Positions 3 to 57,761 of a stretch of 64,000 bases of DNA are shown here, in pieces. The DNA is from Chiloscyllium plagiosum (Eukaryota). Position numbers and translations under genes: made by a program. The DNA lies in the NCBI RefSeq assembly GCF_004010195.1, contig NC_057755.1:2519246-2583245 (forward strand), written 5' to 3'. Below the pieces are notes generated by a model that saw nothing but the letters and a program-made list of their open reading frames with translations, ran no database searches and was not told the DNA's origin. Each line of letters starts with the position of its first letter. Position 1 is the stretch's first letter.

Positions 3-69
3 ATGCATCTTCCAATTCAGAAGGCGCAGCAAACATTTTACACAGTCCTTCCAATTCCAACAATTCCTG
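3..69 (+). CDS. Exon 1 of a GPR139-like class A GPCR gene (N-terminus plus start of TM1); exon 2 not visible in the window
   Basis: ATG at 3 gives 22 codons MHLPIQKAQQTFYTVLPIPTIP plus G, then canonical donor GTGAGT at 70. Same length, phase and similar sequence as the exon 1 at 57761-57695 (MHRPIQHVEKVFYTILVIIGVP). Confidence 0.75.
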
Positions 70-2055
70 GTGAGTGCGTTGTGTCATTGAATGTGTGTAA
101 ATCTGTCTTGAGCATTCCCTACGTTTTAACGCTGCAATTGAAAGTGACACATGGGCATTTTGGGGCACTCTCAAACATGGGTAGATGATCTGTGGTCTAG
201 TCTCAGATTACAGATTACCGTGCAGAATCGCCATCACTACAGACCCGGAAGAATTTGCTTGAGTAATTGAAATTTCCATTTTATAATTCAGTTTGTCACG
301 CGACAAATATCCAATTCAATTGGAGACTACAGAGAGTTTCGATGAAATTAAGTAAAATGCTCACTTTAGTTTTTTCGTGTGAACAACCGTTAGGTTTCTC
401 GATTTATCTGAAGGTAATAGTTAATTTATAGGTATTTCTGCAAGCACACATTTTTCCTCTTCAAAAAACCGTGTTTATATACTGGCCCGAGGTTGAATGG
501 GTTTATGCACAATAAACGTTTGTTGTTATTTTCTGATTGAATGCAACCTCGCATTCTGGAATCTGAGTTTAAGGAAAACACCATAAATTGACAAACCTTT
601 TTACTACACTTTTAACTGTGAGTCATTTCTATTATCCGTTGGAACACCCGGGAACTGGGTGTATGTATAGATCTGTGCTCATGAGAAGTGGCCCAGAGAA
701 TTAGTCAATTCGACTACCATGATTTGAAAAGTTCTTGTTCCTCCCAGACCAAAAGTGTTGGAATAAAGGAAGCCCTGAAGAGTTTACTAAAAGCTGAGTA
801 GATTGACGCTCAGCTGTGTGTTAGATTGCCGAAGAAACTATTGCAGTTCCGCTCTAAGAGTGGAAATCGCAACTGACATAACCAAGTGTAAAATCCAGGT
901 TTTCTGGTGTCAGTATTATACGAGAGGTGGTTTTTTGAACAGCATCACTGGTGGCGATCTGTATACATTATATGTTTTTTTTTCAATTTATCGGGTGTTT
1001 CCAAATTAATGAGGTTATAGATTTACTGTGTGCTCAATGCGTTTGAATCTCTGTTATGAGTACACAGTTTGCATTATTCTGTTTTATCATCATTTGTTTG
1101 GTACAGAACTGCTGTTTTGTTGTTGAACTAAAATTTGAGCATTGTCTGTTTACGAGTTGTCAAGAAATCATGTTGTTCAAAACCAAAACAAATACTGTTC
1201 TGATCCATCACGTTTTATTCAGGTCCCGCTTCTGGCTTGTACTGCAGTTAATTCAGCTCATATCAGACCGAAGAAATGTTGTTAAACTCATACTCTAACA
1301 TCTGAGTAACTGATTAACTGACCCCACACCACCCTCCAGCCGTCCAGGTCCAGTACATAGCCCAGACTTTGACCAGACATCTTCTCTGGGAATCAATTCC
1401 ATATTTACTCTTTCCCAAACGACTCCTCCCTTACCCTGGATGTCATCCAACCTGAAACAAACCGCCCCCATTCCTGCAAAACCTGTAACTCTGCTGTCAC
1501 TTAAATCAGTGGGTAGATTACAGCTGCAACGTTGTGCACAGTTGTAGTCACCAATGTACAGGAAGAGCAGAATTTCACTGGGATGAACACACAGTAGACT
1601 TACAACCAAATTACCAGCACTTGGAAATTAGAGCAGCATTGAGGGAAGATTGGATAGCGCTAGACTTGTTTTCTGGAGAGCAGAGGAGAATGAGAGCTGA
1701 TGTAATTGTGGTGTACATACTCAGAAGGGTTTTGATGCAGACCTGTACCCACTAACGGAATGGAGCATTTATCACGGGACACACATTGAGGCTAACTGCT
1801 GAAGGATCATACGGTTCATGAGGGCTAACCCTTCCATCCAGACAGTCGTGGTGTGTCTGGACCTCATTCCCAGTTTGGGGTCGTGAGGTGGCAATTCTCA
1901 ACGTATTTAAATGCAACCAGGATCTTGCATTGAAGTGTATTAACCAAGAAGACTGTGAACTAGGTATTGGACATTGGAATGAGAATAGGGAGCGGATTCA
2001 ATTTCCTTTGAGATAAAATCAAGGACTGCAGATGCTGAAAACCAGAGTCCAGATT

Positions 2056-2556
2056 NNNNNNNNNNNNNNNNNNNNNNNNNNNNNNNNNNNNNNNNNNNNN
2101 NNNNNNNNNNNNNNNNNNNNNNNNNNNNNNNNNNNNNNNNNNNNNNNNNNNNNNNNNNNNNNNNNNNNNNNNNNNNNNNNNNNNNNNNNNNNNNNNNNNN
2201 NNNNNNNNNNNNNNNNNNNNNNNNNNNNNNNNNNNNNNNNNNNNNNNNNNNNNNNNNNNNNNNNNNNNNNNNNNNNNNNNNNNNNNNNNNNNNNNNNNNN
2301 NNNNNNNNNNNNNNNNNNNNNNNNNNNNNNNNNNNNNNNNNNNNNNNNNNNNNNNNNNNNNNNNNNNNNNNNNNNNNNNNNNNNNNNNNNNNNNNNNNNN
2401 NNNNNNNNNNNNNNNNNNNNNNNNNNNNNNNNNNNNNNNNNNNNNNNNNNNNNNNNNNNNNNNNNNNNNNNNNNNNNNNNNNNNNNNNNNNNNNNNNNNN
2501 NNNNNNNNNNNNNNNNNNNNNNNNNNNNNNNNNNNNNNNNNNNNNNNNNNNNNNNA
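2056..2556. other. Assembly gap (run of N)
   Basis: Uninterrupted N run; ORFs spanning it are artefacts. Confidence 1.
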
Positions 2557-4598: not shown

Positions 4599-4605
4599 GT
4601 TCTGT

Positions 4606-7600
4606 CTACCCACTCAAGGATAGATTACCTGTTTGTGTCCCGAACGCTCTCGGTCAGATTTACTGGCGTCAAGCCGGTGTTCTTCTCTGACCACTGCCTC
4701 CGGCTGGCCGACTGTCACCTACAGGACGAGCAGCGGCTTGGAAGCTGAACACAAAGCTGTTGACCCCGGGAAACGTGGAGGAGCTCAAGAGAGACTATGC
4801 AAGTTGGAGAACCGTGAATCCCCTATTTGAGTCACCAGCGGACTGGTGGGAAACAGTAAAAGGGAACATCCTCAAAGGTGTTCAGGAGGCGAAAGAGGGG
4901 CGGGGGAAACTGTCACAGCTCCAGGACCTGCTCCTGCTGCAGACGATGGGGGTCGATGTCACGGAGGACGTCAAGGAGGGCTAGGACCAGCCAGCCTCGC
5001 TCTTTGCCTCGGAGGTCTCCAAGATAATCTTCCAGTCCAAGGTGCACTCCGTGGAGCAAGACGAGACGTGCTCACATTTCGTCTTCCATAAGGTGTACAA
5101 AGAGAGCTCGGTGCTCAGCAGCCTGAAGGAAAAAGATGGATCGATAACGTCATCTCAGGCTGACATCATGAGGATCAGCAAATCCTTCTATGCCAGTCTG
5201 TATGATGCGAAGCCAACCGACAGCGCGGCTTCCCAGTCATTCCTGTCCTCTATCACGGAGGTCTTGGACGACAGAACACGGGAGAAGTTGGACCAGCCGC
5301 TATCTCTGGAGAGCTGACGAAGGCCCTCGAGTCCTTGGAAAAGAATAAAGCTCCCGGAAACGACGGCTTACCGGTCGAGCTCTATTCTACTCTGTGGGAT
5401 CTGGTTGGCCAGGACAAGCTGGAGGTGTATGTCGGTATGCTTCTGGCAAGTACCATGAGTGAATCCATGAGGAAAGGCATCATCAGCCTCATCTACAAGT
5501 GCAGGGGGAGAGGGAGGAAATCAGACATTGGAGACCAATCTCACTATTGTATGCGGATTACAAAATATTGTCAAAGTTTATCACCAACCAGGTCAGGTGT
5601 GCTCTGGGGTTGGTGATTAACCCTGACCAAACCTGTGCTGCACTGGGCAGGAAGATCGCTGAGAGTCTCGCACGCCTCATGGCTACGATCGACTACGTGC
5701 AGGACAGAGGGTTGGACAGCTGCTTGATCAGCCTGGACCAGGAGAAAGCCTTTGACAGGACAAAACACACATATATGAGAGATGTTCTCTCCAAAATTGG
5801 CTTTGCGGAGGTAATCTGCAATTGGATCAGACAGCTGTACACCAACATTGTCAGTGCAGTCTCAATCAATGGGTGGGAATCAGATAGCTTCCCAGTCAGA
5901 TCTGGAGTCAAGCAGGACTGCCCTCCCTCTCCTGCCTTGTTTGTGTGCTGCATAGAGCCATTTGCCGAGTCCAGCTGAAGGATGCGAGCCTGAGATGTGT
6001 GATTATTCCTGGCAGCGGGGGCCTGCAGGTTATGGCTTCCCTGTATATGGATGACGTCACCGTTTTCTGCTCAGATCCGCTGTCCGTGCACAGACTCATG
6101 TGCATATGTGACCAGTTCGAACGGGCCTCGGGGGCCCTGAAGGATGCGAGCCTGAGATGTGTGATTATTCCTGGCAGTGGAGGCCTGCAGGTTATGGCTT
6201 CCCTGTATATGGATGACGTCACCAGCGGATCTGCTCAGATCCGCTGTCCGTGCACAGACTCATGTGCATATGTGACCAGTTCGAACGGGCCTCGGGGGCC
6301 AAGGTAAACCGAGGCAAGAGCGAGGCCATTCTCTTCGGGATCCGGGCCGACCAGTCCTCGATCCCCTTCACCGTCAGGACCGACCACTTGAAGGTGCTGG
6401 GAATTTGGTTCATGGTGGCTGGGGCGTGCTCCAAGTCATGGGAGGAGCATATCAGCAAGGTGAGGCAGAAACTGGGCAGATGGAAGCTACGGTCGCTCTC
6501 CATCGCGGGGAAAAACCTGGTCATCAGGTGTGAGGCACTGTCATTGCTGTAATACGTGGCACAGGTCTGGACCTGTGCCACTGCAGTCAACCGGGCCATC
6601 TGCCAATTTGTATGTAAATCAGAGGTGGACTGGGTCCAAAGGGATTCGATGTATAATGGTCTGGGCAACAGGGGAAAAAATACACCCAATGCCACCCTCA
6701 CGCTGATGACCACCTTTGTGTGTGGCTGCATCAAACTGTGCGTGAATCCCCGTATGCAAACACCAAGTGTCATTACGTACTGAGGTTCCACCTGTCCCCG
6801 GTTTTGCGAAGGATGGGCCTGGCCCCGCTGCCGTGGAATGCTCCGAGTAGTTGGACCGTTCTGTATCATCTGTCCTTCGTGGAGAAGTTTATGAAGAAAA
6901 ACACCTTTTCCCACAAGTCCATCAGCAAGTTGTCAGCACGTACTGTCCTTGAGACCCTTCGGGAAAAGGAGAGGGCGGATTCTATCGAGCGGTTCTCTGA
7001 GCAGACTGTCAAAGTCATTTGGCAGAATGCCTCATCGCCAGAACTTTCCAACAAGCACCAAGACATGGCTTGGCTGGCGGTGAGAAGGGCTCTGCCTATG
7101 AGATCCTTTATGCACGCCTGGACTCTCTCCCGCACCGCACGCTGCCCTCGAAGCGGCTGCAGGTGGGGGGGGGGGGGCGTACTAGACTGTCTCACACCTC
7201 CTTCTGGAATGTGCCTATGCAGAAGAAGTCTTGAGAGGAATGCAGTGGTGTTTGTCGAGGTTCGTCCCGGTCAGTGCCGTGACGCGGGATTACATGCTCT
7301 ACGGTCTGTTCCCCGGGACGGACACTGAGATGAACATCAGTTGTGCCTGGAGTATCATCAACTCGGTGAAGGACGCTCTCTGGGTGCTCCAAAACCTGTT
7401 GATCTTCCAGCTGAAGGAGTTGACCCAGACTGAGTGTTGCAGACTGGCATATTCCAAGTTCCAGGACTACGTGTTGAGGGACGCGCTGAAGCTTGGGGCA
7501 GCTGCCGCCAAGGCGCGGTGGGGAAACACCACCGTGTAACATTTGCCTGCCTAAGCAGAACAGGGGGTCCACCCAGTCATTTGGGCTCCGCTGACGCCTC

Positions 7601-8520: not shown

Positions 8521-8524
8521 TCCT

Positions 8525-9539: not shown

Positions 9540-10380
9540 TTGTTACATCTCATCATATCATCTACTGGTCTCTGAGTAATTTTCTGCTTTACGAAATCAG
9601 TGCATTTGTGCAGCAACTTAAGTCCGTCGGCATAAATATGACTTGTTCAAACTGATAGAATGTCGACCGATCGAAGGAATAACCAGCATTAAAGAAATAT
9701 ACAACATACACTAACCAGAGAAGGATGAAGCTGGCAAAGAGTAAAATCACAGGTTTCTTTCTGCTGTCTGGCTCTGGGCCATTCTCTGTTTTTTCTCTGA
9801 GCTCTCAATTCCTTCTGCAATTTAATGGCCTCAGAGACATGTCTAACAGTTAGAACATTGATAAAGACAATGAAAGTAAAAGGGAGCAGTGGTGCTAAAA
9901 ATGTGCAATACATTCAAAACTTGCCCACTGATTCTCTTTGAAAAATCTGGACCTAATATAACAGTTCCATGGAATATTGTTGATGATCTTTCCAAGATTA
10001 AATTGAAAGTAGTTACGAATATTCTTGATAGAAAATAAAATGCAGAGTGTTGCTAGAAACTTCATTGTAGTTTTCTCTGTGCAATACTTAGTTTTCATTT
10101 GATGAAAACAAATGGTGACAAGTCGATCATATGAAATGGCAATGGTGAAATAGACAGAACATTCAATGGCCAAACTGCTCAGGACATGGATAACGATACA
10201 AACAGCAGTGATGTCCAGGAAACGCGGTGGATAATAATAATATCAAATTCGGTTAAGCATAACATCCAAATTAATGAACTGTAGATCAAACGCTGCCATG
10301 GTCACCAGATAACAAGTGCTGCATGTGGAAAGACCATACTTGCCCCAAGCTGAAAATATGATCACCACGGGACTAATTTT
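9540..10380 (-). pseudogene. GPR139-like GPCR pseudogene (exon 2 only)
   Basis: Translates in pieces as GKYGLSTCSTCYLVTMAAFDL...RI*YYYYPPRFLDITAVC...CSVYFTIAISYDRLVTICFHQMKTKYCTEKT...PWNC / LAPLLPFTFIVFINVLTVRHV / LSCCTNAL. In-frame stop, frameshifts and a degraded acceptor after a polypyrimidine tract. End coordinate approximate. Confidence 0.9.
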
Positions 10381-11356: not shown

Positions 11357-12484
11357 GGTCAATGCTGAAGGTTATGACCTCATGGCCTTATCACTAAATT
11401 ATTAATTAAGTGATCCAGGTAATGTTCTGCCGAGCTGGGTTTGATGTCTGTCATGGCAGATGGTGAAATTTGAATTCAATAATTATCTGGAGTTAAGAGT
11501 TCAATAATGATGATACAATTGTTGTCAACTATTGGAAAAAAAATCTCATTCACGAATCTCCTTGAGGGAAAGTCAGCCATACCTGGTCTAGCCTAAATCG
11601 GTTCCAAATCTATAGCAATGATTGACTCTTACCTTCCATCTGGGCAGTTATGGAAGGGTGGTAAATGTTGACCTAACCAGTAATACTCACATCCCTTCAA
11701 TAAATAAAAGAAAATTGAATTCCCCAATGCACAGCCAGCTCCCCCATCGCAGATGACTGCTCCCTTTTTTATATCACTCCCTTGGATTTGATCGCCCTTT
11801 ACTGAGTCTATTATCACAAATAAGAGGCTCTCACAATATAACCACTTTCGAAGATAAGAGATACTCCATTCAATTCAGCGTAGTTTCCTGGAGTAGGGAA
11901 TACAAAGACCAGTACTCAACGGTCAATGCTGAAGGTTATGACCTCATGGCCTTATCACTAAATTATTAATTACGTGATCCAGGTAATGTTCTGCCGAGCT
12001 GGGTTTGATGTCTGTCATGGCAGATGGTGGAATTTGAATTCAATAATTATCTGGAGTTAAGAGTTCAATAATGATGATACAATTGTTGTCAACTATTGGA
12101 AAAAAAATCTAATTCACTAATCTCCTTGAGGGAAAGTCAGCCATACCTGGTCTAGCCTAAAGCAGTTCCAAATCTATAGCAATGATCGACTCTTACCTTC
12201 CATCTGGGCAGTTATGGAAGGGTGGTAAATGTTGACCTAACCAGTAATACTCACATCCCTTCAATAAATAAAAGAAAATTGAATTCCCCAATGCACAGCC
12301 AGCTCCCCCGTCGCAGATGACTGCTCCCTTTTTTATATCACTCCCTTGGATTTGATCGCCCTTTACTGAGTCTATTATCACAAATAAGAGGCTCTCACAA
12401 TATAACCACTTTCGAAGATAAGAGATACTCCATTCAATTCAGCGTAGTTTCCTGGAGTAGGGAATACAAAGACCAGTACTCAAC
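11357..12484. repeat. Head-to-tail duplication, 564-bp unit
   Basis: 11357-11920 and 11921-12484 both begin ggtcaatgctgaagg and end cagtactcaac; few substitutions; identical 62-aa ORF appears twice in the track. Confidence 0.95.
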
Positions 12485-13699
12485 AGCCAACCTTGGTAAA
12501 AGGAGCTGTCTCCTGCCGTTGAGACCAGACAAGAGTTCGGAAACTCATTGGACGTGGTGAAATAAGCTATGATACAGATGATGCACTGGAATTGATGATG
12601 CCTTGAACTCAGCACCAACCATCCAGCCTTTCACTTTAACATTTCTTCTGCTCTCTCCCATTCGGAACATTCCCTTTGACACTCACCACCCCTTGGGTTC
12701 AGAGACATCCTCTTGCAGATGTGGGAATACTGATCACTTTAAAAAGTACTCATGGAATGGGAGCTTTAGTGGTTTATGCAGTGTCCATTATCTGGCTCTA
12801 ACTGTCTTTGGGATGGCATTGGAAATCTGCCTTATTGAACGCCTACATTTCCTGGAGTGCAGGAAGCCCAATGTGTTTTTGAGGGAGAATTGCAGAATTT
12901 TTCCCTCGTCGCAGTGATAGAACAAGCATGAGGTCCGGCTTGAAAGGGAATGTTCTTGTGATGGCATTTCTGTGCATCTGTTGCCCTTGTTCTTCCAGGG
13001 AGCGGAGGTCTTGTGGTTTGCCAGGTGCTGTGAAAGACGTTTTGAGATTATAGACATCAGAACTTTAATAACTAGGATTGAATGAATCAACGAAGGATAA
13101 ACTGTTTCACAGAGATGGAAACAGCAATAACTCTGCCTGGAATAAACCATTAAAGGACAAGGACAAATAGATTCGGAATTGAAAGTAATAACTCCGTCTG
13201 GGAAAAAAGGGACTGAACAAAACTGATTTGACACCTGCTTCATAAACTGACTGCTTTCTTGCCACAAAGGACAGGGATAGCCCTGCAGAACAACGTAAGG
13301 AGTTAATCACAGGATTACAATCACAGGGAAGCTGTGTCTTCAAACAGACAGTTAATGCCAAATGGAACCAGGAAGCTACTTCTGAAAGAACGCATGTTAC
13401 AGATGATCAGTAATTGGATGAAAGGACCATAAAGAAATCATCAATATATCACCTTGGAGACTGAGGGATGAAAATTTGTATAAGAATCGAACATTAGAGC
13501 TCCCGCCCATAGACTGTCGAAGAACAACACTGCATGAAGATTAAACCTTTCACACTCCCAGAGACAGATTACTGTTGTTTGAATCCTGGACAGATTCCAC
13601 CATTAACTGTATAATCGTCAAGTTGCATTGTGAGACTTAACTTGCTTACTTGGGGGCCTTTATTTCGACATGCAATAAAGTTTAAATCATAATTTCAAT

Positions 13700-17830: not shown

Positions 17831-19550
17831 AATGTTCATTCAATGGGCTTCAGATTTTAAAGATCCCATTGATTTTCAAACCAGATCTACGAGTGCAATG
17901 CCGAAGCAGGGAATCAATGTGGACGATTTCTGATGACTAAAAGATACACCCCTTCCGAGCACCATACTTTAGAAAAGATGTCAGAGCAAGTACAGCAAAT
18001 ATTTGTGACAATGTGCTGGAGATGGGGGACTACAGGAAGAGCGGGAAGCTGGAGTGCCCTCCCCCACAACAGAGGGTGTGCGGGGGAGGTTTTATAGAGC
18101 CGTTGAAATGCTGAAGACATGCTGAAATGAATGAGAACAATCTGTTTCAATTGAAAGATAAGGAGAGAACCAACGGATAGAGAGGGAAATGAGAACAGTG
18201 TCTTTTAAGCAGGTGATTGTTTTGATCTGGAATTTACTGTAGAAGGGCTGTGGGAACAGATTCATTAATAACATTCATTTTTGGATTTCAGCAAATACCT
18301 GATTTTGGGCTGTTACAGTGTACAGTGTCATGGATTAAGGAAAGAGGAATGGAATTATTTGGATACATAGGACGAATGGCCTCCTTCTATGCTCCATTAT
18401 TCTGCATCATCATTACAGCCGATATTTAAGTTGAGCTGGGCGACTATTGCACCCTCTCTTCAAACTTCTCTGACTGTCCTTATCCCTCTCTCAGACTACT
18501 CAGTTGTCTGTCCTGTTTAAGAAATATTCTTAACTCTACGTTTTTGAGTAAGTTATTGTTATGTGGCCACATTTTACCTTTGATGGCTAAAGCCAACTCT
18601 GTTTAATTGTCACAATAAATGCTTTGTGTGGTATATTTGGGGATTGTGTTGAATTACATTGCAACACCACGGTGGCATTGCTTTGTGCATAACTGCATTC
18701 CAATCAGTTCATCTTGTTTTTATTCCCGGCTGTTGCAAGTCTGGAACTTTAAATCTATCAACATGAAAACCTTGGGGTAAAATTCAATGTTTTCATTGCT
18801 CGACTTTGTTCGGAAAACACATGCAATGCTTGTTTAACAAAACATTATCCCTCCCTCCACCACCACCTGCAGATCCCCAGTATTCCTCATTTTTAACATT
18901 GGTGATTCAAGATTTCCTTTCGTTTTCCATCATAGTTTGTTCAATGGTGTAAAAATAATTCTTTATCCCTGTTGTAGGAGGACGTCAGGCAACATTTGCC
19001 ACAGGATTGTCTGACAAAGACACCAGGTACACATTCTTCAGAAGGACATTCACGACTCAAGTAAGAGATGTTTCCATCTACTTCACTGTCTAATATGGAA
19101 TTGTCACATAAAATTTATCGTAACATATTATCCGACATAAGATATGATGAGTGAAGGACAAAATGTGAGCGAGTTGCATAGAGTAAACAGGTGATCGATG
19201 GAAAGCCAAGACAAGACCGTGACTGACTGAAACATTGGCAAGCAGGATTAGTATGAGAGTGAGTGTGCAAGGAAAGGACACGGTGCAGGCAAGAAGTGGA
19301 CAATGTCGGAGTGAATGAAAGAAAAGGGTGTATTAATAAACAAGTGAGGAAAAAGTGGCAGTTGAGTGAAACAGACTGAATGATGGCAAAACGAAGGAGC
19401 AAGAAAGGGACAGAGTGTGAGCAGTTCACCGGAAGTGGAATAACATGAGGAAGTAAGCGAGCACACAGACATCAGATGCAAGATAGTGACAGCAATGCAT
19501 TACTTCGGGTCTCACTTTGATGCACACATGTAACATAGAACATGACTAAA

Positions 19551-20464
19551 TTATAGACTAAGTAATGTTTTTTTTAATTGATTTATTTGAATAAAGGGAT
19601 ATTGCAGCACTTTCTTCCAGTGCTCCCTGAACTTCTCCTGTGGGACAGCATAAATTGCGGAGTTTGTGCAGCAGCTCAGGAGCTGGAGCATGAAGCCTAA
19701 TTCCTGTACAAATGGATGCAGATACAAATCATTATATCCCAATCCCCTCATTCGGTACCATATAACGTAAATCATGAACATCGACCATAACAGGATGAAA
19801 TTTAACGAGATGGCAAACAGTAACACTATGGATTTCCTTCGACTCTCCATTTCTGGATCACGGGAACTATTCCCACTGCTAGTGGCTCGGAGTCTCCTGC
19901 GGGCTCTGCTGGTCACCAAAATGTGTCTGACAGTGAGAACATTGAGCAGCAGAATTAGGAGGAATGGGACAGCTGGGGTTAGAATGTGGTGGAGGAACTC
20001 GATTGGTATCCACACCGGAGAGTAGAGAACAATCCATGAAAATGTACAAAACCAGGGCACATTCCCCAGCTGATAGTGACGCTTTAACATAAAATACCAG
20101 AAAATATTTTTTAAACAGCTCAGCGCAGTCACTGTTCCCAGAACCACAGCCGCTGCTTTCTTATTGCAGTATTCACTTTTCAGCTTCTGGCAACAAATGG
20201 CCACAAACCGATCAAAGGTGAAAGTGACGGTGAACCAGACAGAGCAGTCAGTGGCAGCATAAAGCAGGACAGCGTGGATATTACACACGGGAATGTCTCT
20301 CAGCAAATAAAACTGTTCCTGATAAACAATGGGAATGTGTCTCAGTATCAGATCGAGGATAACGACCAGTAGATCCGCCACTGCCATGGCTCCCAGGTAA
20401 CGTCTTACACATGGAGACAGTCCACAATCTTTATAAAGCAGCACGCAGATTGTCACTATGTTAA
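19551..20464 (-). CDS. Exon 2 of an intact GPR139-like class A GPCR (end of TM1 to C-terminus)
   Basis: Acceptor ttttacctcactcacAG then TT AAC ATA; open frame to TAA at 19551. Motifs MAVADLLV (TM2), PVC, TFDRFVAIC (DRF), PWFC, PAVPF (TM5), NFILLW (TM6), SCCTNSAIY (TM7), KFRE (helix 8). The first 21 aa of the tracked ORF are intronic. Confidence 0.93.
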
Positions 20465-21654
20465 CTGTGAGTGAGGTAAAAACAAACAATTGAACTGTGG
20501 GCCAAACATTGTCAGTTTTAATGTGCATTTACAGACAACATAAAGCATGTTTCTGCATTCAGTGATCTATTGAAATACGTGTACTTGAAATAACAAATGA
20601 GATGGTTTGAGGTATTTGAAAACATTAAACTCAAAAGATAGGAAGCACTCACTCGTCCCACAAGTTCAAATGCAGAGGCATAAGTGATTGCGAGACAAAG
20701 AAAATGCATTGCATTACTGGAGCCCAGACCAAGTGCATTCTGGTATGTCGGTATTTGCCATACAAGTTGTGTCCCAGGCAAGTAACCATGCTGTCGGCTT
20801 TCCAATTTCCACACGTTAACAAATCCATTAGGTCGACCTTCCTGAATCTGAAACAGCCATCTCTTTAAAATCTACACGAAACTACAAGAAGTGAGAGGAA
20901 GGAGTTCAAACATGCGTCAGATCCAGTCAATCAGCTCACATTCAATCATCGACACCAGATGCTTGTCCACCAGTGATTGGAAAAACCCTGGGAATTAATT
21001 TACAAAGCAGGGAAGGAGACCATTCCACCATGTGAATTTGTTAAAGAAGCATGGGCAGGCCACATTTTGCATACTTTCCGTATTGCTCTCCCCGGCACAT
21101 ACCTGACAGGGTAACATATTGTCTGAGATATCCCCATCCTACACACACAAAAAGGACAAACTGGAATAATCCAGCCTCTTTTCAGTCATTAATAAAGTGT
21201 TGGAAAGAGACATCGGCGGTGCTGCCAATCTGTATTTAAAGTGCAATATATTGCTGACTGGCCACTCAGTCTGTGACCTCATTCTGCCTCTGAATCAAGC
21301 AAAGACAAGAGATGGAACACCACAGAATAGTTGAAAGTGATTGTCTTTGACTCACAGATGCATGGATCAAAGCGTGGCAACACTGACAACCTGTCAAACT
21401 GTAATGATAGTGAATCAAGGAAAACCTCCATTGGTTTATGTTTGTTTGAGGTTATTCACCACGGCTCTGGTCTTCTCTGCAAGAGTCACTTGGTGCAGAA
21501 TTTCTAATTTAACTTAAACGGCACAGAAATGTGATCATACATGCGTGGGGTTGAGTGACACTTGAATTGGGAGCTTCTAACGACACTACTAATTTGCCAA
21601 ATGAAAACTAAGATGTTCTTCAGCGTAGTGTGTTCAGCCCAACAATATTCAGTT

Positions 21655-23330
21655 AGAGTCATAGAATCATAGCGATTTACAGCATGGAAACAGACCCTTC
21701 GGTCCAACCCATTCACGCTGACCAGATATCCCAACCCAATCTAGTCCCACCTGTCAGCACTGGTCCATATCTCTCTAAACCCTTGCGATTTATATACCCA
21801 CCCAAATGCCTCTTCAATGTTGCAATTGTACCAGTCTCCACCACTTCCTCTGGCAACTCATTCCATACACGTTCCACACTCTGAGTGAAAAAGTTGCCCT
21901 TTAGGCCTCTTTTATATCATTCCCCTCTCAACCTAAACCTATGCCCTCTAGTTCTGGACTCCACGAACCCGGGGAAAAAAAAGTCTATTTACCTTATCCA
22001 TGCCCCTCATAATTTTGTAAGCCTTTATAAGGTCGTCCCTCAGCTTCTGACGATCCGGGGAAACCAGCCCCAGCCTGTTCAGCCACTCCCTATAGCTCAA
22101 ATCCTCCAACCCTGGCAACATCCTTGCAAATCTTTTCTGAAACCTTTCAAATTTCGCAACATCGTTCCAATAAGAAGGAGACGAGACTTGCACGCACTAA
22201 TCCAACAGTGGCCGAAACAATGTCCCGTGCAGCCACAACATGACAACCCAACTCTTGTACTCAATACTCTGATCAATAAAAGAAAGCATAGCAAACGCCT
22301 TCTTCACTATCATATCTACCTGCAACTCCACTTTCAAGGTGCTGTTAAACTGCACTCCAAGGTCTCTTTGTTCAACAACAATCCCTAGGACCTTGCCATA
22401 AAGTGTATAAGTCCTGCTAAGATTTGCTTTTCCAAAATGCAGCTCCTCACATTCATCTGTATTAAACTCCATCTGCCATCTCTCAGCCCACTGGCCCATT
22501 TGAACAAGATCCTGTTGTAATCTGAGGTAAGCTTCTTCGCTGTCCACGACACCTCCAATTTTGGTGTTTTTGCAGACTTGCTGACTGTACTTCTTATGCT
22601 CGCATCCAAATCACTTACGTAAATGACAAAATAGTAGAGGACCCAGCACCAATCCTTGTGGCACTCCACTGGTCACAGGCCTCCAGCCTGAGAAACAACC
22701 CTCCGCCACCACCGTCTGTCTTCTACCTTTGAGCCAGTGCTGTATTCAAATGGCTAGTACTCCCTGTATTTCGTGAGATCGAAGCTTGCTAATAAGTCTA
22801 CTATGGGAACGTTGTTGAACGCCTTACTGAAGTCCATATAGATCACATCTACCGCTCTGCCCTCAATCCTCTTTTTACTTCTTATTAAAACTCAATCAAG
22901 TTTGTGAGACATGCTTTGCCACGCACAAAGCCATGTTGAATATCTATAATCAATCCTTCCCTTTACAAATACATGCACATCGTGTCCCTCAGGATTCCCT
23001 CCAACAACCTGCCTACCATCGAAGTCAGGCACACTGGTCTGTAGTTCCCTGGCTGTTCTTCTTAAACAGTGACACCACGTTAGCCAACCTCCAGTCTTCC
23101 GGCACCTCACCTGTGAATATCGATGATATAAATATCGCAGCCAGAGGCTCAGCAATCATTTCTCTAGCTTCCCACAGAGTCCTAGAGTACACCTGATCAA
23201 GTCCTGGGGATTTATCCACCTTTATGCGTTCAAAGACATCCAGCACTCCCTCCTGTGTAATATGGGCATTTTGTGAGGTGTCGCCACCTATTTCCCTACA
23301 TTTTATATCTTCCATATTCCTTTCCACAGT
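21655..23330 (-). mobile_element. CR1/HER1 LINE, RT plus 3' end (intronic)
   Basis: DKSPGLDQVYSRTL, VPEDWRLANVVSLFKK, WAERWQMEFN, RMLPGLEDLSYRE; tail (tcatagag)n at about 21655. Confidence 0.9.
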
Positions 23331-25857
23331 GAACCTGATTATTCGAAACACGCAAAAAGTCCAAACGATACGTGTTTGCTTTGGAAGGGCTCAGTCTGAA
23401 GTGTATTTAATTATTTCCATTTGGCTGCTCACGGGTCTCTTTCTAAATTGTCATCTTTCTTTTGTTGCAATAACTGATTACTCGTGTTCAAAATAACATC
23501 AGACTTGCAATGTTTCAGGAAATATCAATTATAGAATGCTTCAGAGAATGCCAGGTGCAGATATTTCCGAATGCATGGAACAGAAATGTAAGATTCAATT
23601 TGCAACCATAATAATTCACCCAACCTAGTGATGACAGACCAAATGAAGATGTACATCATAGCCTACTTTAAACGAATATGCAATAGACAGATACATTTAC
23701 TCGGTCATAGAGTCATAGGTGTCTATAGCAATTAGCCACCCAGTGAAACAAAAAAAAGGACCTAACTTTTATTCCCGGTTTCCAGCACTTGATCCATGTA
23801 CTCGAACATCTTGGCATCACAATTGGACGTGTACTTATTGCTTAACTGCTAAGACAGTTTCTGCCTTAACCACCTTCACAAACCATGCTTTCCAGATTCC
23901 CATCATACTCTAATTGAAAATAACATTCACATCACCTTTTAAATTCCTTCTCAGTTACACTGAATGTATACCTCTTTGTCAATGACTCCTCCACCACTGA
24001 TCAAATCATCCAGCCAGTTTGCTTATATCCTCTTGTAATCACTATTTATCACCCCACCACTTTTTTAACATCCTATAATTTATTGATCATCTCTCCTAAA
24101 TCACGTCTAAATCATTCATGTATAGCACACTTAGATAGCTTTAGACTGACTGCAACATTAAAAAGCGGATTTCAGAATAGATTAATGAACATCTTAATTT
24201 GGTCAGCATCACTCCCATCATGACCATGATCATAATTTGTATGTGAAGGTTATGCAAGTAGCTACCCAAAGTGGCCCATCATATCCCATACACTATGTAG
24301 GCTCTGCGATGAGATCAGCTGAGTATTGAAGAAACTCATCAGAGGCATTCAGGTCTATATCTGAAGCTTTGGAAGCAACACTGACATAACCGCTGACAGA
24401 AGTGAAGCTTTTATTCTGATTTTATTCTCATCTGAGCTCATGATGTGCTTAGAAGGAATTCACTCACACAAAAAGGAAGAGAATCAGATGAAACTCATGA
24501 GGAAAACAACTTTATGAACATGAAATCTTGCTAAAACTATCAGTCAATCACAATGACAGATTAACATTAAATGGTGTCAGGAAAACGCTGTTGCGGCGTA
24601 GGGAGATCTCAATGGGAAACCAATCCTCAAAAGCTAGTCTTAACTGGAAGTGGGTTCTCATTTAAATCAGATTAGGTGAAGCAGCAAATGCGTAGAAAGA
24701 CCAGATAATTATGAAACGCTGGCGAACAATTTGGCTTTGATATTGTTAACCTGTGTGGCCTGATGCCCTGTGTGAGTATATATAGACTTATAATCTTAGT
24801 CACACAGCACCTTAGTGTGTGTATATTTAATTGAACAGACTCCCATCAGGATTTGGACTAGGAGCAAAAAGGAGCCAACGTTTTTTTCATCAGCTGAAAT
24901 TTCTGAACTCAAACAAGGCAGAAAATTTCAATAACATTGGAAGTGAGAGCTGGCAGGCGGAAGGAAACAGTATGGCTTTCACTGAAAATGAACATAAACA
25001 AAACTGTGAACATGGCCAACAAATGGGCTGTTACACAATGGAAATCGGGGATAAAGCATAACTTACAAACATTTCTAAATATGGAGAAAAGGCTTGTGAA
25101 CAGCAGAGAAAACACTTCAAAACAGAATAATACAGTGAAGATTCATTAAAACCGTAAGAGTTCGTTCACAAAATTTCATTGAAGACACAACCAGGAGGAT
25201 TATTGTTGAATGTTAAAATGGTGATTTGAAAACGTTTTTCAGAGGAATACAACTCCACATTGGTAACAAAGGAGGTGACAGAACATCACACAGCGTGACA
25301 AAAAAAATCATGAGTTTTTGGTTTTGACCCAAAAGGCAGGAAAATTATTTATGCATGCAATAATCAGCAAGAAATTCACAGTACAATTAAAATGAATTAT
25401 GAAACAATATCAAAAGTTGATGAGGTTCATTGTAGAATAAAATGTTCTGTAATCAAAATGATAATTGTAAACAGCTTTGTTGCATCTTTAAATATATAAT
25501 AAAGACAAGGCATATTTGTGAAAGAAAAGAGACTGTGTGTCTTAAAGGTATATACAAGGTTAGTCTTTTTCAAAAATCAGAATATTATCTGCATAAAAAA
25601 CAATTTATGCAATTGTGTTCTAATACATCAAGTCATTTAATTCAGGTTTGAAGTATAGAATCATTTAAATAGATTTATTTTCTCACTGCATCTGTTGAAC
25701 ATAAATAACAAACTAATTTGACTCACTCACGATATGAAGAAACAGCTGGAAACTGCAAAGATAATAGCTCCTGATTACATTCCAAGAGTAATACTGAAGG
25801 TTTCATCTCCAGAACGAGCCGCACTCATTGACAAGGTATTTTAGTACAGTCCAGGAG

Positions 25858-33939: not shown

Positions 33940-35803
33940 CGGTCGAATATTCCAATATATTTGTCTCAATTCTCCTGTCTTCTCTCTCCCTCTTTCTGGA
34001 GCCCCTGATCCCTGTTCAGTTCAGAGGTGATGCTCCCGCTGATGCAATTCGAAAATACATTGATAGTACTCCCTTATTAATACGAGAGTGCAACCATTCA
34101 GTGAGACGATAGATCCATGGAGACTGATATTAATCATGGTCATTAAACAAATATATTCAGTTAACCCATGTCAGCGCAGCGCTTTTATATTACAATAATT
34201 CAGGGTCTGCAGAGGTTGTTGACATTATTGACTTTTGGCCTTGTCGCCCATTTCACATTGCCAAAAGGATGTTATTGGTGAGGCGAAAAATAATGTTTTC
34301 GCTCTGCAAGTTGGTTGATTATTGTTGTTTTGTTCACATGCAACGCTGCAGCCAAATACGTAATAGCCAATCAAGAGGTTGTTACCATGCTGAATTTCCC
34401 ACCACTGCAATAGATTCCAACCAAACGATTATTTCTAGGCAGCATTGCCCGGAACACACAAAGGAAATGTGGTGTGTATGAACTTTCCACTTTCTGTTCA
34501 TATAGTACTCACAAAGTACTTTATCAGCTTTTAAATTAAATCTGCTGACATATTCTCGCACAGCTTATTTGCTTTAAAGCAGGATCTTTCCAGTCTTTTT
34601 GTCCTCAGTCCGAAAACAAATATGACATTCATAGTTTTCTTGTTCAATGAAACCCATGGAATAAAGATTGAGTGACAAAATTGCCCACACGTGGACAGTT
34701 TCTGTGGAGACTGAAAGCGCAAAACTGATATTCCACAGATACAGTAATCAAACATGACCTTTTCCTCACAGAAGAACAAAGATTGCCCCAAAAAATAGAG
34801 CGGGAAACATTCGGGAGACGAAATAGCGAGGGTTATATTCCAGTCGAATGTTCTCAGATTCTCATCCATTATTGTAATATTCAAATCTACTGCTCTCACT
34901 TTCTGAATCATCGGTCGAATATTCCAATATATTTGTCTCAATTCTGCTGTCTTCTCTCTCCCTCTTTCTGGAGCCCCTGATCCCTGTTCAGTTCAGAGAT
35001 GATGCTCCCGCTGATGCAATTCGAAAATACATTGATAGTACTCCCTTATTAATACGAGAGTGCAACCATTCAGTGAGACGATAGATCAATGGAGACTGAT
35101 ATTAATCATGGTCATTAAACAAATATATTCAGTTAACCCATGTCAGCGCAGCGCTTGTATATTACAACAATTCAGAGTCTGCAGAGGTTGTTGACATTGT
35201 TGACTTTTGGCCTTGTCGCCCATTTTACACTGCCAAAAGGATGTTATTGGTGAGGTGAAAGATAATGTTTTCGCTCTGCAAGTTGGTTGATTATTGTTGT
35301 TTTGTTCACATGCAACGCTGCAGCCAAATACGTAATAGCCAATCAAGAGGTTGTTACCATGCTGAATTTTCCACCACTGCAATAGATTCCAACCAAACGA
35401 TTATTTCTAGGCAGCATTGCCCGGAACACACAAAGGAAATGTGGTGTGTATGAACTTTCCACTTTCTGTTCATATAGTACTCACAAAGTACTTTATCAGC
35501 TTTTAAATTAAATCTGCTGACATATTCTCGCACAGCTTATTTGCTTTAAAGCAGGATCTTTCCAGTCTTTTTGTCCTCAGTCCGAAAACAAATATGACAT
35601 TTATAGTTTTCTTGTTCAATGAAACCCATGGAATAAAGATTGAGTGACAAAATTGCCCACACGTGGACAGTTTCTGTGGAGACTGAAAGCGCAAAACTGA
35701 TATTCCACAGGTACAGTAATCAAATATCACCTTTTCCTCACAGAAGAACAAAAATTGCCCCAGAAAATAGAGCGGGAAACATTCGGGAGACGAAATAGCG
35801 AGG
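33860..35803. repeat. Head-to-tail duplication, about 972-bp unit, covering the 5' part of exon 1 and the upstream promoter region
   Basis: 33860-34831 and 34832-35803 both begin gttatattccagtcgaatg and end gaaatagcgagg(g); a small number of substitutions. Confidence 0.95.
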
Positions 35804-36559
35804 GAAAATATGAACATACCAGGATGATTTGTATGGCTGACGTCACAGTGAACACGGAGTGAATAGAAATGGTGAAGAAAAAAATAGAAAGAGGAGGGCA
35901 TCGTTCCTCAGACTGCAATGACCAACACTTATCAAGTGCAATGTCTGTTAGTGTGACAGGCGGCTTGAATAATGGGATTTGAGAGATTTTTGAATTTTTA
36001 TCTGTGAGAGGAGAATATGCAGGGCTACGAGGAAACTGCAGGAGAATAGCAGCAGAGGAATAGCTCCGTTCGAGCTGGTGCAGAGACGACAAACTGAATG
36101 GGAACCATCTTTGCTGTGAGGTTCTTCAAGAGTTCTTAAGTTTTTTTTAGGAGTCTGAGGACATTTGCTGTTTCAGTATTCCACCTTGTGTTTCCTTTAA
36201 CCTGTTATCTCTGCCTGTTCTACCATGAAGTGAAATTGCCTGTAAAATGAGTTTTACAGACTAAATTGCCTGAGAATCGACCACTTGGAGTGGATATTTA
36301 CAAATGTTTTGTTTCTTCGAATTTATTAAAGAAGCAGATTCAGTGCATTGCAAGTGATACGGGGAGAGGTGATGAAGTAATGGGAGCAACAACACATGGT
36401 ATGATCCACATATAACGAAATTCAACAACCAGACGCTGTCAGTAAAATTAAAATGCTGGAGATGATGATAAACTGAAATGACAACAGAAAAATGTGAAGA
36501 CATTCAACAGATCAAGCCGCACCTGTAGAGAGAGAAAAACTGTGTTAACAATCCGTGTG

Positions 36560-53192: not shown

Positions 53193-54295
53193 TCACCTCT
53201 GCCTGCAATGGGAATCACTGTGTCCGAATGGAAGTTTGAACAAATAAATTAAAATTAAAATGTGTTGAATCAAAGGCTCAGAGTTTTGACTCTCTATTCC
53301 TCTGTGTTTCAAGTGATGCAATGCCATGCTCTGCTGGACTCCCCATGCCACTGTACAAACATCAGATTTATTTTGGAGAAAACATCCAAGTCAGTGAGTG
53401 TCTTCAATTGCCCGTTTGTTTCATTCTTCAAAGAACGTCTTTGGAGTCTCAGAGCAATTTTGCAGGGTCCCTTGTGAAGTCATAAGTGAGTAAGCGTGGG
53501 TAGCAGATGCTGGCGATTAGAGTTAAAAAGTGTGCTGTTGGAAAAGCACAACCAGTCAGGCAGTATCCGAAGAGCAGGAGTGTCAACGTTTCAAGCATAA
53601 GCTTCTCATCAAGCCTCTGCCCTAAACTTCGATTCTCCTGCTCCTCGGGTTCTGCCTGACTGGCTGTGCTTTTCCAGCACCACACTTTTCGACTCTGGGC
53701 GTCTGTGTGTTGATGGTGCTGTCAACTTAGATTATGTTGTTAGCTGCTACAGTCTCTCTCTGTCTCTCTCTCTGACTGAACCCTTGAGGGAATGAATCCT
53801 CCGCAGCACCACGTGTAGTGTCTTGGAGGGGATAGTAGAAGGTAACGTTGTATTTTTTTTAAACTGAAGAGAGATCTATTGCATGGTTTTGAATCTTCAC
53901 TCCATGATAGGAAATACTGTACATGTTGGTGGGCTGCAATGGTGTAGCAGCCCATTGGAAGTCGTAAGCTTGATGTTAAAAAAGAAATCCCAACTTTTGT
54001 TATTATTCATATATTTTAATGTGTTACTGAACTTCTCTCTGAACCGAGAAAATGTTGCTGCATAAATTACCTTCAAGTCATTATGTGGGCCAACATGGCA
54101 CCAATTGTTAAAGTTCACTTGAGACTAACTTTAAGAAAGTTCTGGAATTTACATAAGAAAGAACTGAAGCCAAAATGCCCATTCTAAAAGAAGAGAGAAT
54201 TAACAAATGATTCAGGTCTTCTTCAATATATAATTTCAGTTACATCACACTGTAAATTTTTGCTATAAATTATGTGTCTTACGATCCTGCTACAC

Positions 54296-54335: not shown

Positions 54336-55305
54336 TCCAAATAAACCTGTTGGACTATAACCTGGAGTTGTCTGATTTTTAACTTTGCCAAAATAAATAT
54401 GGATTGTTTCTGATAATATCATACAGTGACCTGCCACAATTTCTAACATTGAAAGACCTCATCGATGGCTGTTTATGACATAGTATGAGGTCTGTTGAAT
54501 TGCTACTGAGCAGTGGGATCATGTATTTAATAGACAAACATTTTCTGATTAACTATTCTATTTAATTTCATTAGCACCCTCTGAAGGATTTGATGGTGAT
54601 GGAGAATTACAGTGGGATCCACGCTGATAGGAATAATCCAGTTGGATATTCCATTTCCCTGGACAATTCCATTTAATTGTGCTACAATGGGAAATCTTCA
54701 GGTACCCAACTCAGCTCTCTCCCTGCTCTGGGATAAGGACACTCTGTCAGCAGTGTGAGTGGAGACTTCCCACTTGCCTGGATGGGGGCATCTCCAAAAA
54801 TCGCTCAAGAAGCTCAACACCATCCAGGACAAAGCGACCCATCTGATTGGTCCCACATCCACAAAAATCCACTCCCTCCACCTCTGACACTCAGTAGCAG
54901 CAGAATATATCATCTACAAGATGCACTGCAGAAATTCACCAAAGATCCTCAGACAGCATCTTCCAAACCCATGACCTCTTCCACCTGGAAAGACAAGGGC
55001 AGTTTATATCTGGGAACACCAAGCCCCTGCAAAGTCCCCTCCAAGCCTCTCATCATCCTCAGTTGAAAACTTATCGCTGTTCCTTCAATGTTGCTGGGTC
55101 AAAATCCTGGAATTCCCTCCCGAAGGGCATTGTAAACTGCAGTGGAATAAGAAGGCAGCTCACCACCACCTTTTCAAGAGGCAACTATGGAAAGGTAATA
55201 GATGACCCAGCCAACAATGCTCGCATCCCATGAGTGAATATTTTGAAAACATTGTTCCATAGTCTGGAAAATATAGGCCCGTCCTGTTTTGTTAACTGTG
55301 GAGTT

Positions 55306-56308
55306 TTATTTATCTATAACACAAGAAATGTATGTAACCATGTGTTTTCCTGGATTACTGAACTTTGCTCTGAGCCCAGACAATGTTGCTGCATAAATAA
55401 ATGTGCTTGTGCAACAACTTAGGTTTCGCAGCATGTGACCAATATTCCTGAAGTGATACAGAAAATCCGAGTAATCGTTAGGATTGATTCCTTGAATGGC
55501 ATGAGATAAGAAACCTACAACATTGATTAACCACAGGAGGATGAAGCTCCCAGAGATGGACAACAGCAAAATCACAGCTTTCTTTCTGCTCTCCATCTCT
55601 GGATCTCTGTAATTCTCTCCATTGCTCTCACCCTTCAGCCTCTTCTGGACTCAAATGGTCAATAAAATACGCCTGACTGTCGGAGAACTGAGCGACAGAA
55701 TTAAAGTAAATGGCAGTAAAGGTCTTAAAACCGTACCAAGCCAATCTAATGCGACCCACCAAGCTTGACTTTGTTCTACAGTAGAATGGAATATGGATTA
55801 TTATCTTCAGAGGCTCATATTGAAAATAGAAGGGGATGTTTTTCAAGCAGAACAGGGTGCAGGTTGTTGCTAGAACCACACTCGCAGTTTTCTCAGTGCA
55901 ATATTTTGTTTTTAGCTTCTGACAACAAATGCTCACAAATCGGTCAAAGGAGAAAGTGACAGTGAACCAGACAGTGCAGCCAGTAACAGGGCCCCAGTAA
56001 CACTGCACACAGAAGTAATGTCCAGGAAAAAGCGTGGGTAATAAAAAATATGACAACAAATGCTCACAAATCGGTCAAAGGAGAAAGTGAACCAGACAGT
56101 GCAGCCAGTAACAGGGCCCCAGTAACACTGCACACAGAAGTAATGTCCAGGAAAAAGCGTGGGTAATAAAAAATATGAGATCTCCCGAGTAAAACACTAG
56201 TGATAATGACCATCAGATGGGCTGCTGTCAAAATCACCAGGTAGCGAGTAGTACAAGACGAATCACCGCATTTTTCCCGGGAAAGGACAACAATCGACAT
56301 CAAATTAA
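55306..56308 (-). pseudogene. Exon 2 of a GPR139-like GPCR pseudogene
   Basis: Acceptor cccagAG then TTAATTTG: VNLMSIVVLSREKCGDSSCTTRYLV..., CTVWFTVTFSFDRFVSICCQKLKTKYCTEKTA, DPEMESRKKAVILLLSISGSFILLW, LSCCTSTFIY. Frameshifting deletions plus an internal duplication of about 131 bp. Confidence 0.92.
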
Positions 56309-57694
56309 CTCTGGGAGACAAAAGGGAAAAGATGCGGTGAATTGCTGATCACAATTTCCTCCTGCCTGTTCCACAGTGTAACAATAAGATTTTACCAGCA
56401 AAAACCGCTGTACTGTGTGATTGGAAATGTGTGGTATTCAGTGAGTTTGAATTTTAGGGCTTCCACACTCACCCCAGATTGTGCGGCTGCCCAATACTCC
56501 AGACATTATTGGTTTGGAGAGAGCCTGAGCTGATGCTTCCTCCTCAGGGAGCAGAAGGAAATCTGTGATTTTGTTTGGCTGCACGGGCACTATCTGTATA
56601 AGTGTAGTAGATTCTGACAATTCTCAGCTCCAACTCTGGTAGGCACAGAACCCAGTTAGAAACCTCGGTCCCTGTTCAGACACAGGATTGGAGAATGGAC
56701 TGTCAATAAATCAAACGCACCCGTTCTCCATAATCCGGTCACCCCTAGTGCTTTGTATTGGACCAAATCCTGATCAGAACCACAACAGGATAAGGAAACA
56801 GGTCATTAGAGCCTATTGAAGATCTTGAACAATACTCTATATATATATGACGCAATTTCAGCCCCTTTAGTGACAACGTGTGAGTGTTGGACTGTTCTGG
56901 TATTTCTACTGTAAATCTACACATCGTACATGACAAACATCTTGAAGTACAGGGATCATGAGAGCAATCTGTCAAGTTTTGAATCCAATGGCCAGAGACA
57001 ATGAGGGAGAGAAAAGGTCCAGGAGGGATGATAGTTAGACGAAGCTATGCAAAGTGAAACGGGGCACATATCCCTCAGTTCCTTTGCTTCAGAAAAAAAT
57101 CCCACCTCAGATTTAAAATTCTAAACTGATCCTGGATCCACTGCCATTTGTGAAAATTATTTCCAACACATTACCACCCTTTATGTTTCAAAATGCTTCC
57201 GAAGCCAGAACACACTGACCCGAACTCTCACACACTGCTCCCTCACTCTAGAATCGCCAACCAATGAGAATAGTTTGCGTTTTCCAAACTTTTTTTCTTA
57301 ATATCTTGTGGAATCTTGCTCAGGTCACCCCTTAACCTTCTCAATTCAAGAGAAAACAGGTCTCATTTGTGTAACAGAAACAGAAAACCTCAGCTGGACT
57401 GGCATCACTTTGGGAGAGAAAATACAGTTACAGTCTGGGTCTCGTGATCCTTCTTCCGAACTAACGTACCTGATATCTCTCCTTTTAGCTTCCTAAAGTA
57501 TGAAACCGGAACAGATGACAGAACACTGAGATCAGAGAATGCTGCAGCGGCAGTGAGGTTGGGAGTCTCTGTCAGTGGAGAATTGTACCGAGAATGCTGC
57601 TCATTGAATTGTTGTCACTTTTCCCGTGTCTGAATAAGACTGACCAGCAGATCAACAACAGATAAAGGCAATTCAATTCTCATTATGCCATTCT

Positions 57695-57761
57695 CAGGGA
57701 CGCCAATAATAACAAGGATGGTGTAGAACACCTTCTCCACGTGTTGAATTGGTCGATGCAT
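57695..57761 (-). pseudogene. Exon 1 of the same pseudogene; splice donor destroyed
   Basis: ATG 57761: MHRPIQHVEKVFYTILVIIGVP plus G, followed by AGAATG instead of GT. Phase matches exon 2 at 56308 (intron about 1.39 kb). Confidence 0.82.

Follow-up and report, generated by a model that had tools for sequence, protein, structure and literature searches.

A GPR139-related gene cluster in the shark Chiloscyllium plagiosum belongs to a large chondrichthyan receptor family that may be chemosensory

GPR139 and GPR142 are class A G protein-coupled receptors (GPCRs) activated by L-Trp and L-Phe, and each occupies a single locus. The families through which vertebrates sense chemicals (OR, TAAR, V1R/ORA, V2R/OlfC and the vomeronasal formyl-peptide receptors) are clustered, evolve by birth and death, accumulate many pseudogenes and vary on their extracellular face. 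In this study, we analysed a 64,000-nt stretch of the Chiloscyllium plagiosum genome (GCF_004010195.1, NC_057755.1, 2,519,246-2,583,245, forward strand), hereafter the window, to which all positions refer. It carries a cluster of two-exon class A GPCR genes and pseudogenes related to GPR139. We show that these are members of a family of thousands of copies that forms, next to GPR139 and GPR142, a third lineage sharing their intron in transmembrane helix (TM) 1, and that, by its size, turnover and selection, works like a ligand-diversified receptor repertoire. The family resembles the vertebrate chemoreceptors in each of the respects listed above, and in having an Ebf-like promoter site close to a TATA box. 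It differs from them in its independent origin, in having 7tm_1 as its sole Pfam domain and in its coding intron in TM1, and its own sensory role is putative. The nematode srw chemoreceptors expanded from the same FMRFamide/peptide-receptor-related group; seven of our loci exceed the Srw Pfam cut-off, but the srw expansion is independent and took place in another phylum.

The kinship with GPR139 is recognisable and distant. In a sequence search of the PDB, human GPR139 was the sole match (E 8e-6; structures 7vug and 9m42), and the three proteins scanned against Pfam at E<=0.001 all matched 7tm_1 alone, with no match to an OR, TAAR, V1R or V2R profile. The AlphaFold model of a homologue (P0004; predicted local distance difference test score 88.7) has the class A fold, with seven TM helices and helix 8. 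Foldseek matches were likewise class A receptors, with GPR139 ranked 36th among near-equal peptide receptors, a comparison that does not discriminate. Along with the phase-1 intron in TM1, the family shares N5.58, W6.48, the lack of P7.50 and part of the Trp/Phe pocket with GPR139 and GPR142, yet it has a cysteine pair between C3.25 and extracellular loop (ECL) 2 that both of them lack, has lost P6.50 and R6.51, and runs to thousands of copies where they have single loci. This genome holds one locus each that we take, from sequence likeness and general knowledge, to be GPR142 (L096; E 7e-92 to human GPR139) and GPR139 (L097; 56% identical to L096, with family members next at 24-31%). In both, the acceptor of the TM1 phase-1 intron lies at the same position, P|(V/A)N, and exon 1 of the GPR142-like gene ends GLP-G|GT. 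Family members are 19-25% identical to GPR139 and GPR142. In a 53-row tree, GPR139 and GPR142 form a clade of their own (100/100), and the chondrichthyan family joins salamander proteins (100/98) and then those of coelacanth and teleosts (100/99); the deep branches are weak (92/42), and the two outgroups, the only ones included, join as long branches. Simple orthology to GPR139, which would have counted against the proposal of the first-pass annotation of the window, was rejected on the low identity, the separate single loci and the separate clade.

With a cut-off of E<=1e-20, a search of public proteins returned 1,998 clusters (90% identity). Sharks, of at least 10 species, account for all of the best 120, and nearly all of these bear the name 'probable GPR139', as the annotation had stated. 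For wider relatives, we looked up 30 of the 150 best representatives at 50% identity. These include rays, a skate and a chimaera; the nearest non-chondrichthyan matches, also 'probable GPR139' proteins, are from newt, axolotl, coelacanth and two teleosts, at 25-32% identity, and each is represented by one such cluster among the 30. Because the nearest outside relatives sit in salamanders, coelacanth and teleosts, the expansion is, to judge from these sequences, chondrichthyan and the lineage gnathostome-wide; the description 'shark-specific' in the annotation was thus too narrow. Like the family, the bony-vertebrate relatives have C3.25, the ECL2 cysteine (in four of five) and a motif in intracellular loop 1, none of which GPR139 and GPR142 have, together with a short N-terminus. 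They may be the 'GPR210A/B' clades of PMC6504862, which in the part available identifies its genes by Ensembl ids only. The RefSeq names 'probable G-protein coupled receptor 139' and 'neuropeptides capa receptor-like' on shark and ray proteins are automatic names for members of this family, and the 'probable GPR139' labels conflate it with GPR139. We found no description of the family in a literature search beyond whose reach most subscription papers lay; GPR139 and GPCR terms led to nothing on it in the accessible text of PMC11979771 and PMC10620051, and the accessible supplements of PMC13188829 and PMC10529500, which hold little content, gave 0 matches. An unnamed metagenome protein (P0182) adjoins the C-type subfamily in the tree and probably stems from DNA that an animal had shed into the sampled environment.

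The size of the family was estimated with a 35-base TM3 pattern. Allowing up to three mismatches, it finds all but one of the 69 known family loci (68), and it differs at seven or more bases from GPR139, GPR142 and five further GPCR loci. It matches the genome 3,552 times at up to three mismatches (reversed control, 3) and 2,354 times at up to one, and replaces an earlier pattern (535 exact matches, 2,301 at up to three mismatches) that missed most E-type and L026-type loci. The expanded family that the annotation had proposed from four loci is borne out by these counts. Protein searches of the same genome with queries from three subfamilies gave at least 130, 150 and 131 matches (130/130, 150/150 and 131/131 of the candidates scored), and no internal stop interrupts 113/130 and 109/131 of the best matches (222/261 by hand count over two non-overlapping searches). 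Among 80 loci sampled from the exact-match lists, 15 contained assembly gaps and were excluded; exon 2 is open in 29 of the remaining 65 (45%) and broken in 36. Scaling by this fraction suggests some 1,050-1,600 intact copies, an estimate that leans upward because the sample consists of exact matches, exon 1 was unchecked per locus and unplaced scaffolds may repeat alleles.

Copies are clustered on small contigs (C44-C49) and lie along contig C8 at about one per Mb. Among the C-type copies on C8, the intron is collinear over 20-29 kb and 76-88% identical, with exon 2 at 88-92%; therefore whole genes, intron included, have been duplicated at the DNA level, both in clusters and dispersed. Retroposition, considered as the copying route, was rejected since the copies keep their introns. 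For the E-type and the D-type alike, 15 of 20 loci have an exon 1 with a GT donor within 4-5 kb, and the GT donor is present in 18 of 20 C-type first exons. The C8 copies (L108-L116, L128-L139) occur over the whole contig and in both orientations, and minisatellites of 65 bp and 40 bp are found in their long introns; that the shared sequence ends 0.1-0.5 kb past the stop codon hints at a defined duplication unit. A D-type cluster (C21:59.2-59.4 Mb; L022, L217) lies near a contig end, 0.5-0.7 Mb from the GPR139-like locus (C21:58.73 Mb); it may have arisen beside GPR139 or have landed later in a subtelomeric position.

Evidence that the copies have diversified comes from the C-type subfamily, to which the intact gene of the window belongs. 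Its alignment comprises 29 open exons, chosen from 35 candidates after 6 with truncations or frameshifts had been removed, and our codon code agreed with IQ-TREE on the M0 likelihood (-8969.2 vs -8969.0). Models with a class of positively selected sites fit far better than those without (twice the log-likelihood difference 619 for M2a vs M1a and 595 for M8 vs M8a), placing 6.5% of sites at a nonsynonymous-to-synonymous rate ratio (omega) of 7.3. All 17 sites with a posterior above 0.95 are extracellular: two in ECL1, nine in ECL2 and six at the tops of TM6 and TM7 with ECL3. They include sites in ECL1 and the ECL2 hairpin, 45.51, 6.58/6.61/6.62 and 7.32/7.35, of which 45.51, 6.58 and 7.35 are, we believe, known selectivity positions in peptide receptors. 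The enrichment has a p of 4e-13 for an extracellular set of 61 of 290 positions that was drawn after the sites were seen, its boundaries agreeing with the AlphaFold model of P0004. The signal persists with separate trees for each half of the alignment (258 and 289), and the 229 non-extracellular sites alone give 5.3, which is not significant; omega outside the extracellular face is 0.35. Differences at second codon positions are 0.60 at the 17 sites, compared with 0.17-0.21 at fourfold-degenerate sites. The first-pass annotation had described TM3 as strongly divergent; this holds between subfamilies, but within the C-type TM3 is the most conserved helix (omega 0.12). Uniform purifying selection, which would have counted against its proposal, is seen in the E-type but not in the C-type, where there is positive selection. 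The first exons of C-type genes (window 33723-33939; L236-L255) vary in the number of DQNLRT-DWNV-T repeats, which carry N-glycosylation sequons, and in a helix ahead of TM1.

The interior of the receptor tells a different story from its rim. In GPR139, Trp and Phe are bound by F3x33, H5x43, W6x48 and N7x38, according to the available text of PMC5430874. W6.48 and D3.37 are invariant in 61 of 61 family members, Y3.33 and H5.42 are kept in all 29 C-type sequences, and N7.39 occurs in 16 of 23 E-type sequences, most of which also keep an aromatic residue at 3.33. At the GPR139 pocket positions, the C-type thus reads Y, H, W, F and the E-type Y/F, D, W, N, and the D-type is mostly changed apart from W. 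Across the family, D2.50, DRF and the TM7 N..Y are intact and P6.50 is lost. In the C-type, the deep pocket and the side facing the cytoplasm stay conserved, and positive selection has diversified 17 positions that face outward.

The promoters offer a suggestive clue to where such receptors might be used. In three subfamilies, the same order precedes exon 1: a TTTGTTCA-type element, an Ebf-like palindrome and a TATA-like box, in blocks with 50% (E), 74% (D) and 67% (C) identity within the subfamily. At the intact gene of the window, locus C, the conserved footprint (34071-34151, minus strand) comprises a TTTGTT-type element (34151-34140), a homeodomain-like TGATTAAT, an Ebf-like TCTCCATGGA (34123-34114) and a TATA-like box (34081-34071); at pseudogene locus D (57848-57945, minus strand) it comprises a TAATT/TTTGTTCA-type element, an Ebf-like site one change from the TCCCCAAGGA of the D-type subfamily and a TATA-like box, the factor names being assigned by likeness at both. 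A perfect YYYCARRRR, which we take to be the Ebf consensus, stands 4-32 bases before the TATA-like box in 8 of 16 promoters of the E-type (1 of 32 intron controls) and 11 of 17 of the D-type (3 of 34 intron controls). As a reference validated by electrophoretic mobility shift assay, we used two Ebf 10-mer sites given in the accessible part of PMC5608512. Within one base of these lie sites in 9 of 14 D-type promoters (0.4% when shuffled) and 6 of 21 C-type promoters, with 13 of 21 C-type within two, so that the Ebf-like site is strong in D, moderate in C and degenerate in E. Most OR promoters are predicted targets of Lhx2 and Ebf (PMC5608512, same portion), and an Ebf-like site near a TATA box, as in olfactory genes, suggests a candidate olfactory-type promoter.

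How might such a family work? Birth-and-death duplication has yielded a large two-exon class A family in which about half of the sampled copies are broken. Each receptor might bind a shared chemical group, such as an aromatic residue or a peptide end, deep in the pocket, with the variable rim telling ligands apart. Its expression would be limited to few cells and driven by a compact promoter in which an Ebf-like site stands beside the TATA box. In the older subfamilies, where selection is purifying, specificities would be fixed. Signalling could run through Go/Gq, phospholipase C and TRPC2 in microvillous olfactory or other chemosensory neurons; the catshark olfactory neurons described in the available part of PMC10116579 are all Go- and TRPC2-positive, and by analogy Go/TRPC2 would be the pathway for such receptors if they are expressed there. 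The same source puts known shark olfactory families at OR 6-13, TAAR 3-5, V1R 2-4 and V2R 8-43, a few dozen in total. We place a chemosensory role, with receptors for peptides or amino-acid derivatives carried in the water, ahead of immune sensing, and regard it as an even call. The narrower proposal, that about 1,000 GPR139-related receptors form a further, independently evolved chondrichthyan olfactory family with one or few expressed per microvillous neuron from Ebf-driven promoters, is possible, and we hold it tentatively.

Several of our own results and some published ones weigh against these sensory proposals. E-type promoters have no site within one base of the validated Ebf 10-mers (0 of 14, no better than controls), paralogous promoters are not independent of one another, and the elements flanking the Ebf-like site may instead be Fox, Sox or Pbx/Meis sites. 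Ebf is active also in B cells and other neurons. When the synonymous rate is left free, extracellular mean omega in the C-type falls to 1.43 (ECL2 1.8; ECL1 0.97 and TM6-TM7 tops 1.34, not significant); because the synonymous rate on the extracellular face is raised, gene conversion or multi-base changes may contribute to the signal. In the 23 exons of the E-type, omega is 0.19 and no class of sites exceeds 1, which serves as a negative control for the method and points to differences among subfamilies. Unplaced scaffolds carry many of the copies, which may include allelic duplicates. As to expression, no RNA dataset was listed as containing locus C. Reads were aligned at 80% likeness to window positions 18300-20700; run X20 gave 0, and X19, a single-cell run of unspecified tissue, gave 2,173, of which none is 99% or more like locus C and about 2,000 were discarded for a 43-nt match to an unrelated abundant transcript. 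The remainder are paralogue reads; those on exon 2 (19515-20486) are few and mostly antisense, and 15 extend into the intron. Paralogues are also held by contigs of datasets X1 and X2 (45 and 24, one of 2,042 nt), whose RNA status is a guess. The catshark nose has already been explained as V2R-dominated (PMC10116579, available text), and no GPCR is among the top 50 genes of a catshark brain and olfactory library in the accessible part of PMC11979771, where V2Rs are absent likewise, so that this absence carries little weight.

The most serious competitor to chemosensation, doubtful but far from negligible, is an innate immune or barrier repertoire like the formyl-peptide receptors or MRGPRs, with receptors on granulocytes, mast-like cells or B cells that would sense peptides of microbes or parasites, an arms race driving change at the outer rim. 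An omega of about 7 at the rim above a conserved deep pocket is at least as compatible with host-pathogen conflict as with smell, the predicted model resembles peptide and chemokine receptors about equally, and the activity of Ebf in B cells would fit this setting too. To our knowledge, however, immune GPCR families are far smaller than about 1,000 genes. A single-cell atlas of bamboo-shark immune cells (PMC11372145) has, in its accessible supplements, 46 occurrences of 'coupled receptor' and 0 of 'receptor 139', weak evidence against an immune role because sparse or multi-mapping genes would not show as markers. We consider it unlikely that the family instead receives the animal's own diversified peptides, whether reproductive, social or for neuronal identity, inside the body or on gametes. 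A conserved core with a variable rim would suit peptides, and GPR139 is akin to the sex-peptide, MIP and FMRFamide receptors, its invertebrate relatives being peptide receptors in the available text of PMC12208981. Pseudogenes making up about half of the copies would nevertheless be unusual for endocrine receptors. Nor do we know of a matching expanded peptide family, though none was searched for.

The remaining alternatives question whether there is a repertoire at all. Most copies might be silent, drifting passengers of segmental duplication on repeat-rich chromosomes, with few functional members. The long collinear introns, minisatellites and roughly one-per-Mb spacing of the C8 copies are what this would predict, as are the 36 broken copies of 65 and the low read support. 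Drift is, on the other hand, incompatible with site-specific omega above 1 and hard to square with omega of 0.35 outside the C-type extracellular face and 0.19 overall in the E-type, with exon 2 conserved above the intron (88-92% vs 76-88%), with the GT donors kept in 15/20, 15/20 and 18/20 E-, D- and C-type loci and with the conserved promoter blocks, and we judge it quite improbable. More improbable by far is that the count is an assembly artefact of haplotigs and false duplications inflating a modest family. The assembly is fragmented (101,977 contigs), many matches fall on unplaced scaffolds and the window itself contains 98% tandem duplications; but 86 of the first 100 exact matches listed sit along one placed contig, terminal branches among the 29 sampled copies span 0.02-0.29 substitutions per site, and the public protein clusters number 1,998 at 90% identity (E<=1e-20), with the best 120 from at least 10 shark species. 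A chemosensory repertoire remains our preferred account of the family.

Within the window, loci were found by six-frame translation and tblastn, which placed all four loci of the first-pass annotation where it had put them and added a fifth remnant that it had overlooked. The cluster accordingly consists of one intact two-exon gene (C), two pseudogenes (B and D), a lone exon 1 (A) and that remnant, and the surrounding 124 kb holds six exon-2 loci, three of them open, plus a 94-96% duplication of locus D. Locus C lies on the minus strand. Its exon 1 (33723-33939; 72 codons and 1 nt) ends in a GT donor and encodes an N-terminus with short repeats and N-x-T sequons; a phase-1 intron of 13,258 bp in TM1 (20465-33722) follows, at the position found in GPR139 and GPR142 of this genome; and exon 2 (19551-20464; AG acceptor 20466-20465) is open from the second half of TM1 to the stop, matching Pfam 7tm_1 at E 7e-19. 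The intact product of 376 aa (72 + 304) is as annotated, its splicing being predicted from the GT/AG sites together with annotated homologues, in which the junction reads ...YYPILAIVGVP-VN.... A 973-bp tandem duplication at 98% identity (33860-35804) repeats the promoter and the first 80 nt of exon 1, and may be either real or an assembly artefact. It is one of several head-to-tail duplications of 315-973 bp at 98-99% (11357-12490 and 33860-35804, and beyond the window 68636-69264 and 86423-87532) that may reflect a habit of the assembly and not biology.

Exon 1 of locus A (3-69, plus strand; 22 codons and 1 nt) retains its GT donor, with no exon 2 visible. It is indeed alone in the window, as annotated, but it belongs to a duplicate: bases 1-2055 match, at 95.7% identity over 2,058 bp, the beginning of an intact gene that lies 13.6 kb upstream of the window, and the duplicate stops at a 500-N assembly gap (2056-2555), so exon 2 may be lost or hidden inside the gap. 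Locus B is a pseudogene exon 2 on the minus strand (9595-10376, the 3' end at about 9595 being approximate), closest to the L026-type subfamily, with its acceptor AG lost, stops and a frameshift; an exon 1 was looked for and not found. Locus D, of the D-type and also on the minus strand, has an exon 1 (57695-57761; 22 codons and 1 nt) with AG in place of the donor GT and an exon 2 (55309-56308) broken by a 125-bp tandem duplication (55920-56178), a 10-nt deletion, a 14-nt deletion and a TGA. It falls in the part of a segmental duplication (55079-64000; 94-96%, at least 12.7 kb in all) whose second copy, 35 kb downstream, carries a second broken D gene. The fifth remnant (54008-54067, minus strand) corresponds to the end of TM7 and helix 8 and is 82% identical to locus D over 60 nt. 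The TM1 junctions, annotated as identical, do share one position everywhere, but the splice signal is lost at two of the five sites visible (the D donor, AG for GT, and the B acceptor, AA for AG), and locus A reads TIP/G where GVP/G was expected.

Elsewhere in the window, a broken retrotransposon, presumably a long interspersed nuclear element, with reverse-transcriptase-like frames lies at about 4985-7536 (plus strand), among many retroelement fragments that we take to be CR1/L2-like. A decayed intronless piece at about 18960-19100 (minus strand), which appears to resemble the ribosomal protein S27a part of RPS27A, draws about 2,000 reads of an abundant transcript and was used to set read direction. 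At a locus outside the window (L034:211-2007, plus strand; C9:94.39 Mb), a gene we take to be somatostatin-receptor-like has a 599-aa open frame with an in-frame Ser/Val/Gly/Pro repeat insertion of about 210 residues in ECL2.

Altogether, this study brings to light what are probably about 1,000 intact GPCRs, hidden under the name GPR139, in the genome of a shark, an animal whose group has an olfactory repertoire that, in current papers, is very small despite a keen sense of smell (OR 6-13, V2R 8-43; PMC10116579, available text), and so makes that paradox directly testable. If the olfactory reading is true, the family would be more than twenty times as numerous as the known olfactory receptors of cartilaginous fishes, and the view of a shark nose built on a few dozen V2Rs would have to be given up. 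If it is immune, no other ligand-sensing GPCR repertoire that we know of in a vertebrate immune system would come near it in size. Either way, gene catalogues need correction, and a context emerges for the low-profile receptor lineage that salamanders, coelacanth and teleosts retain.

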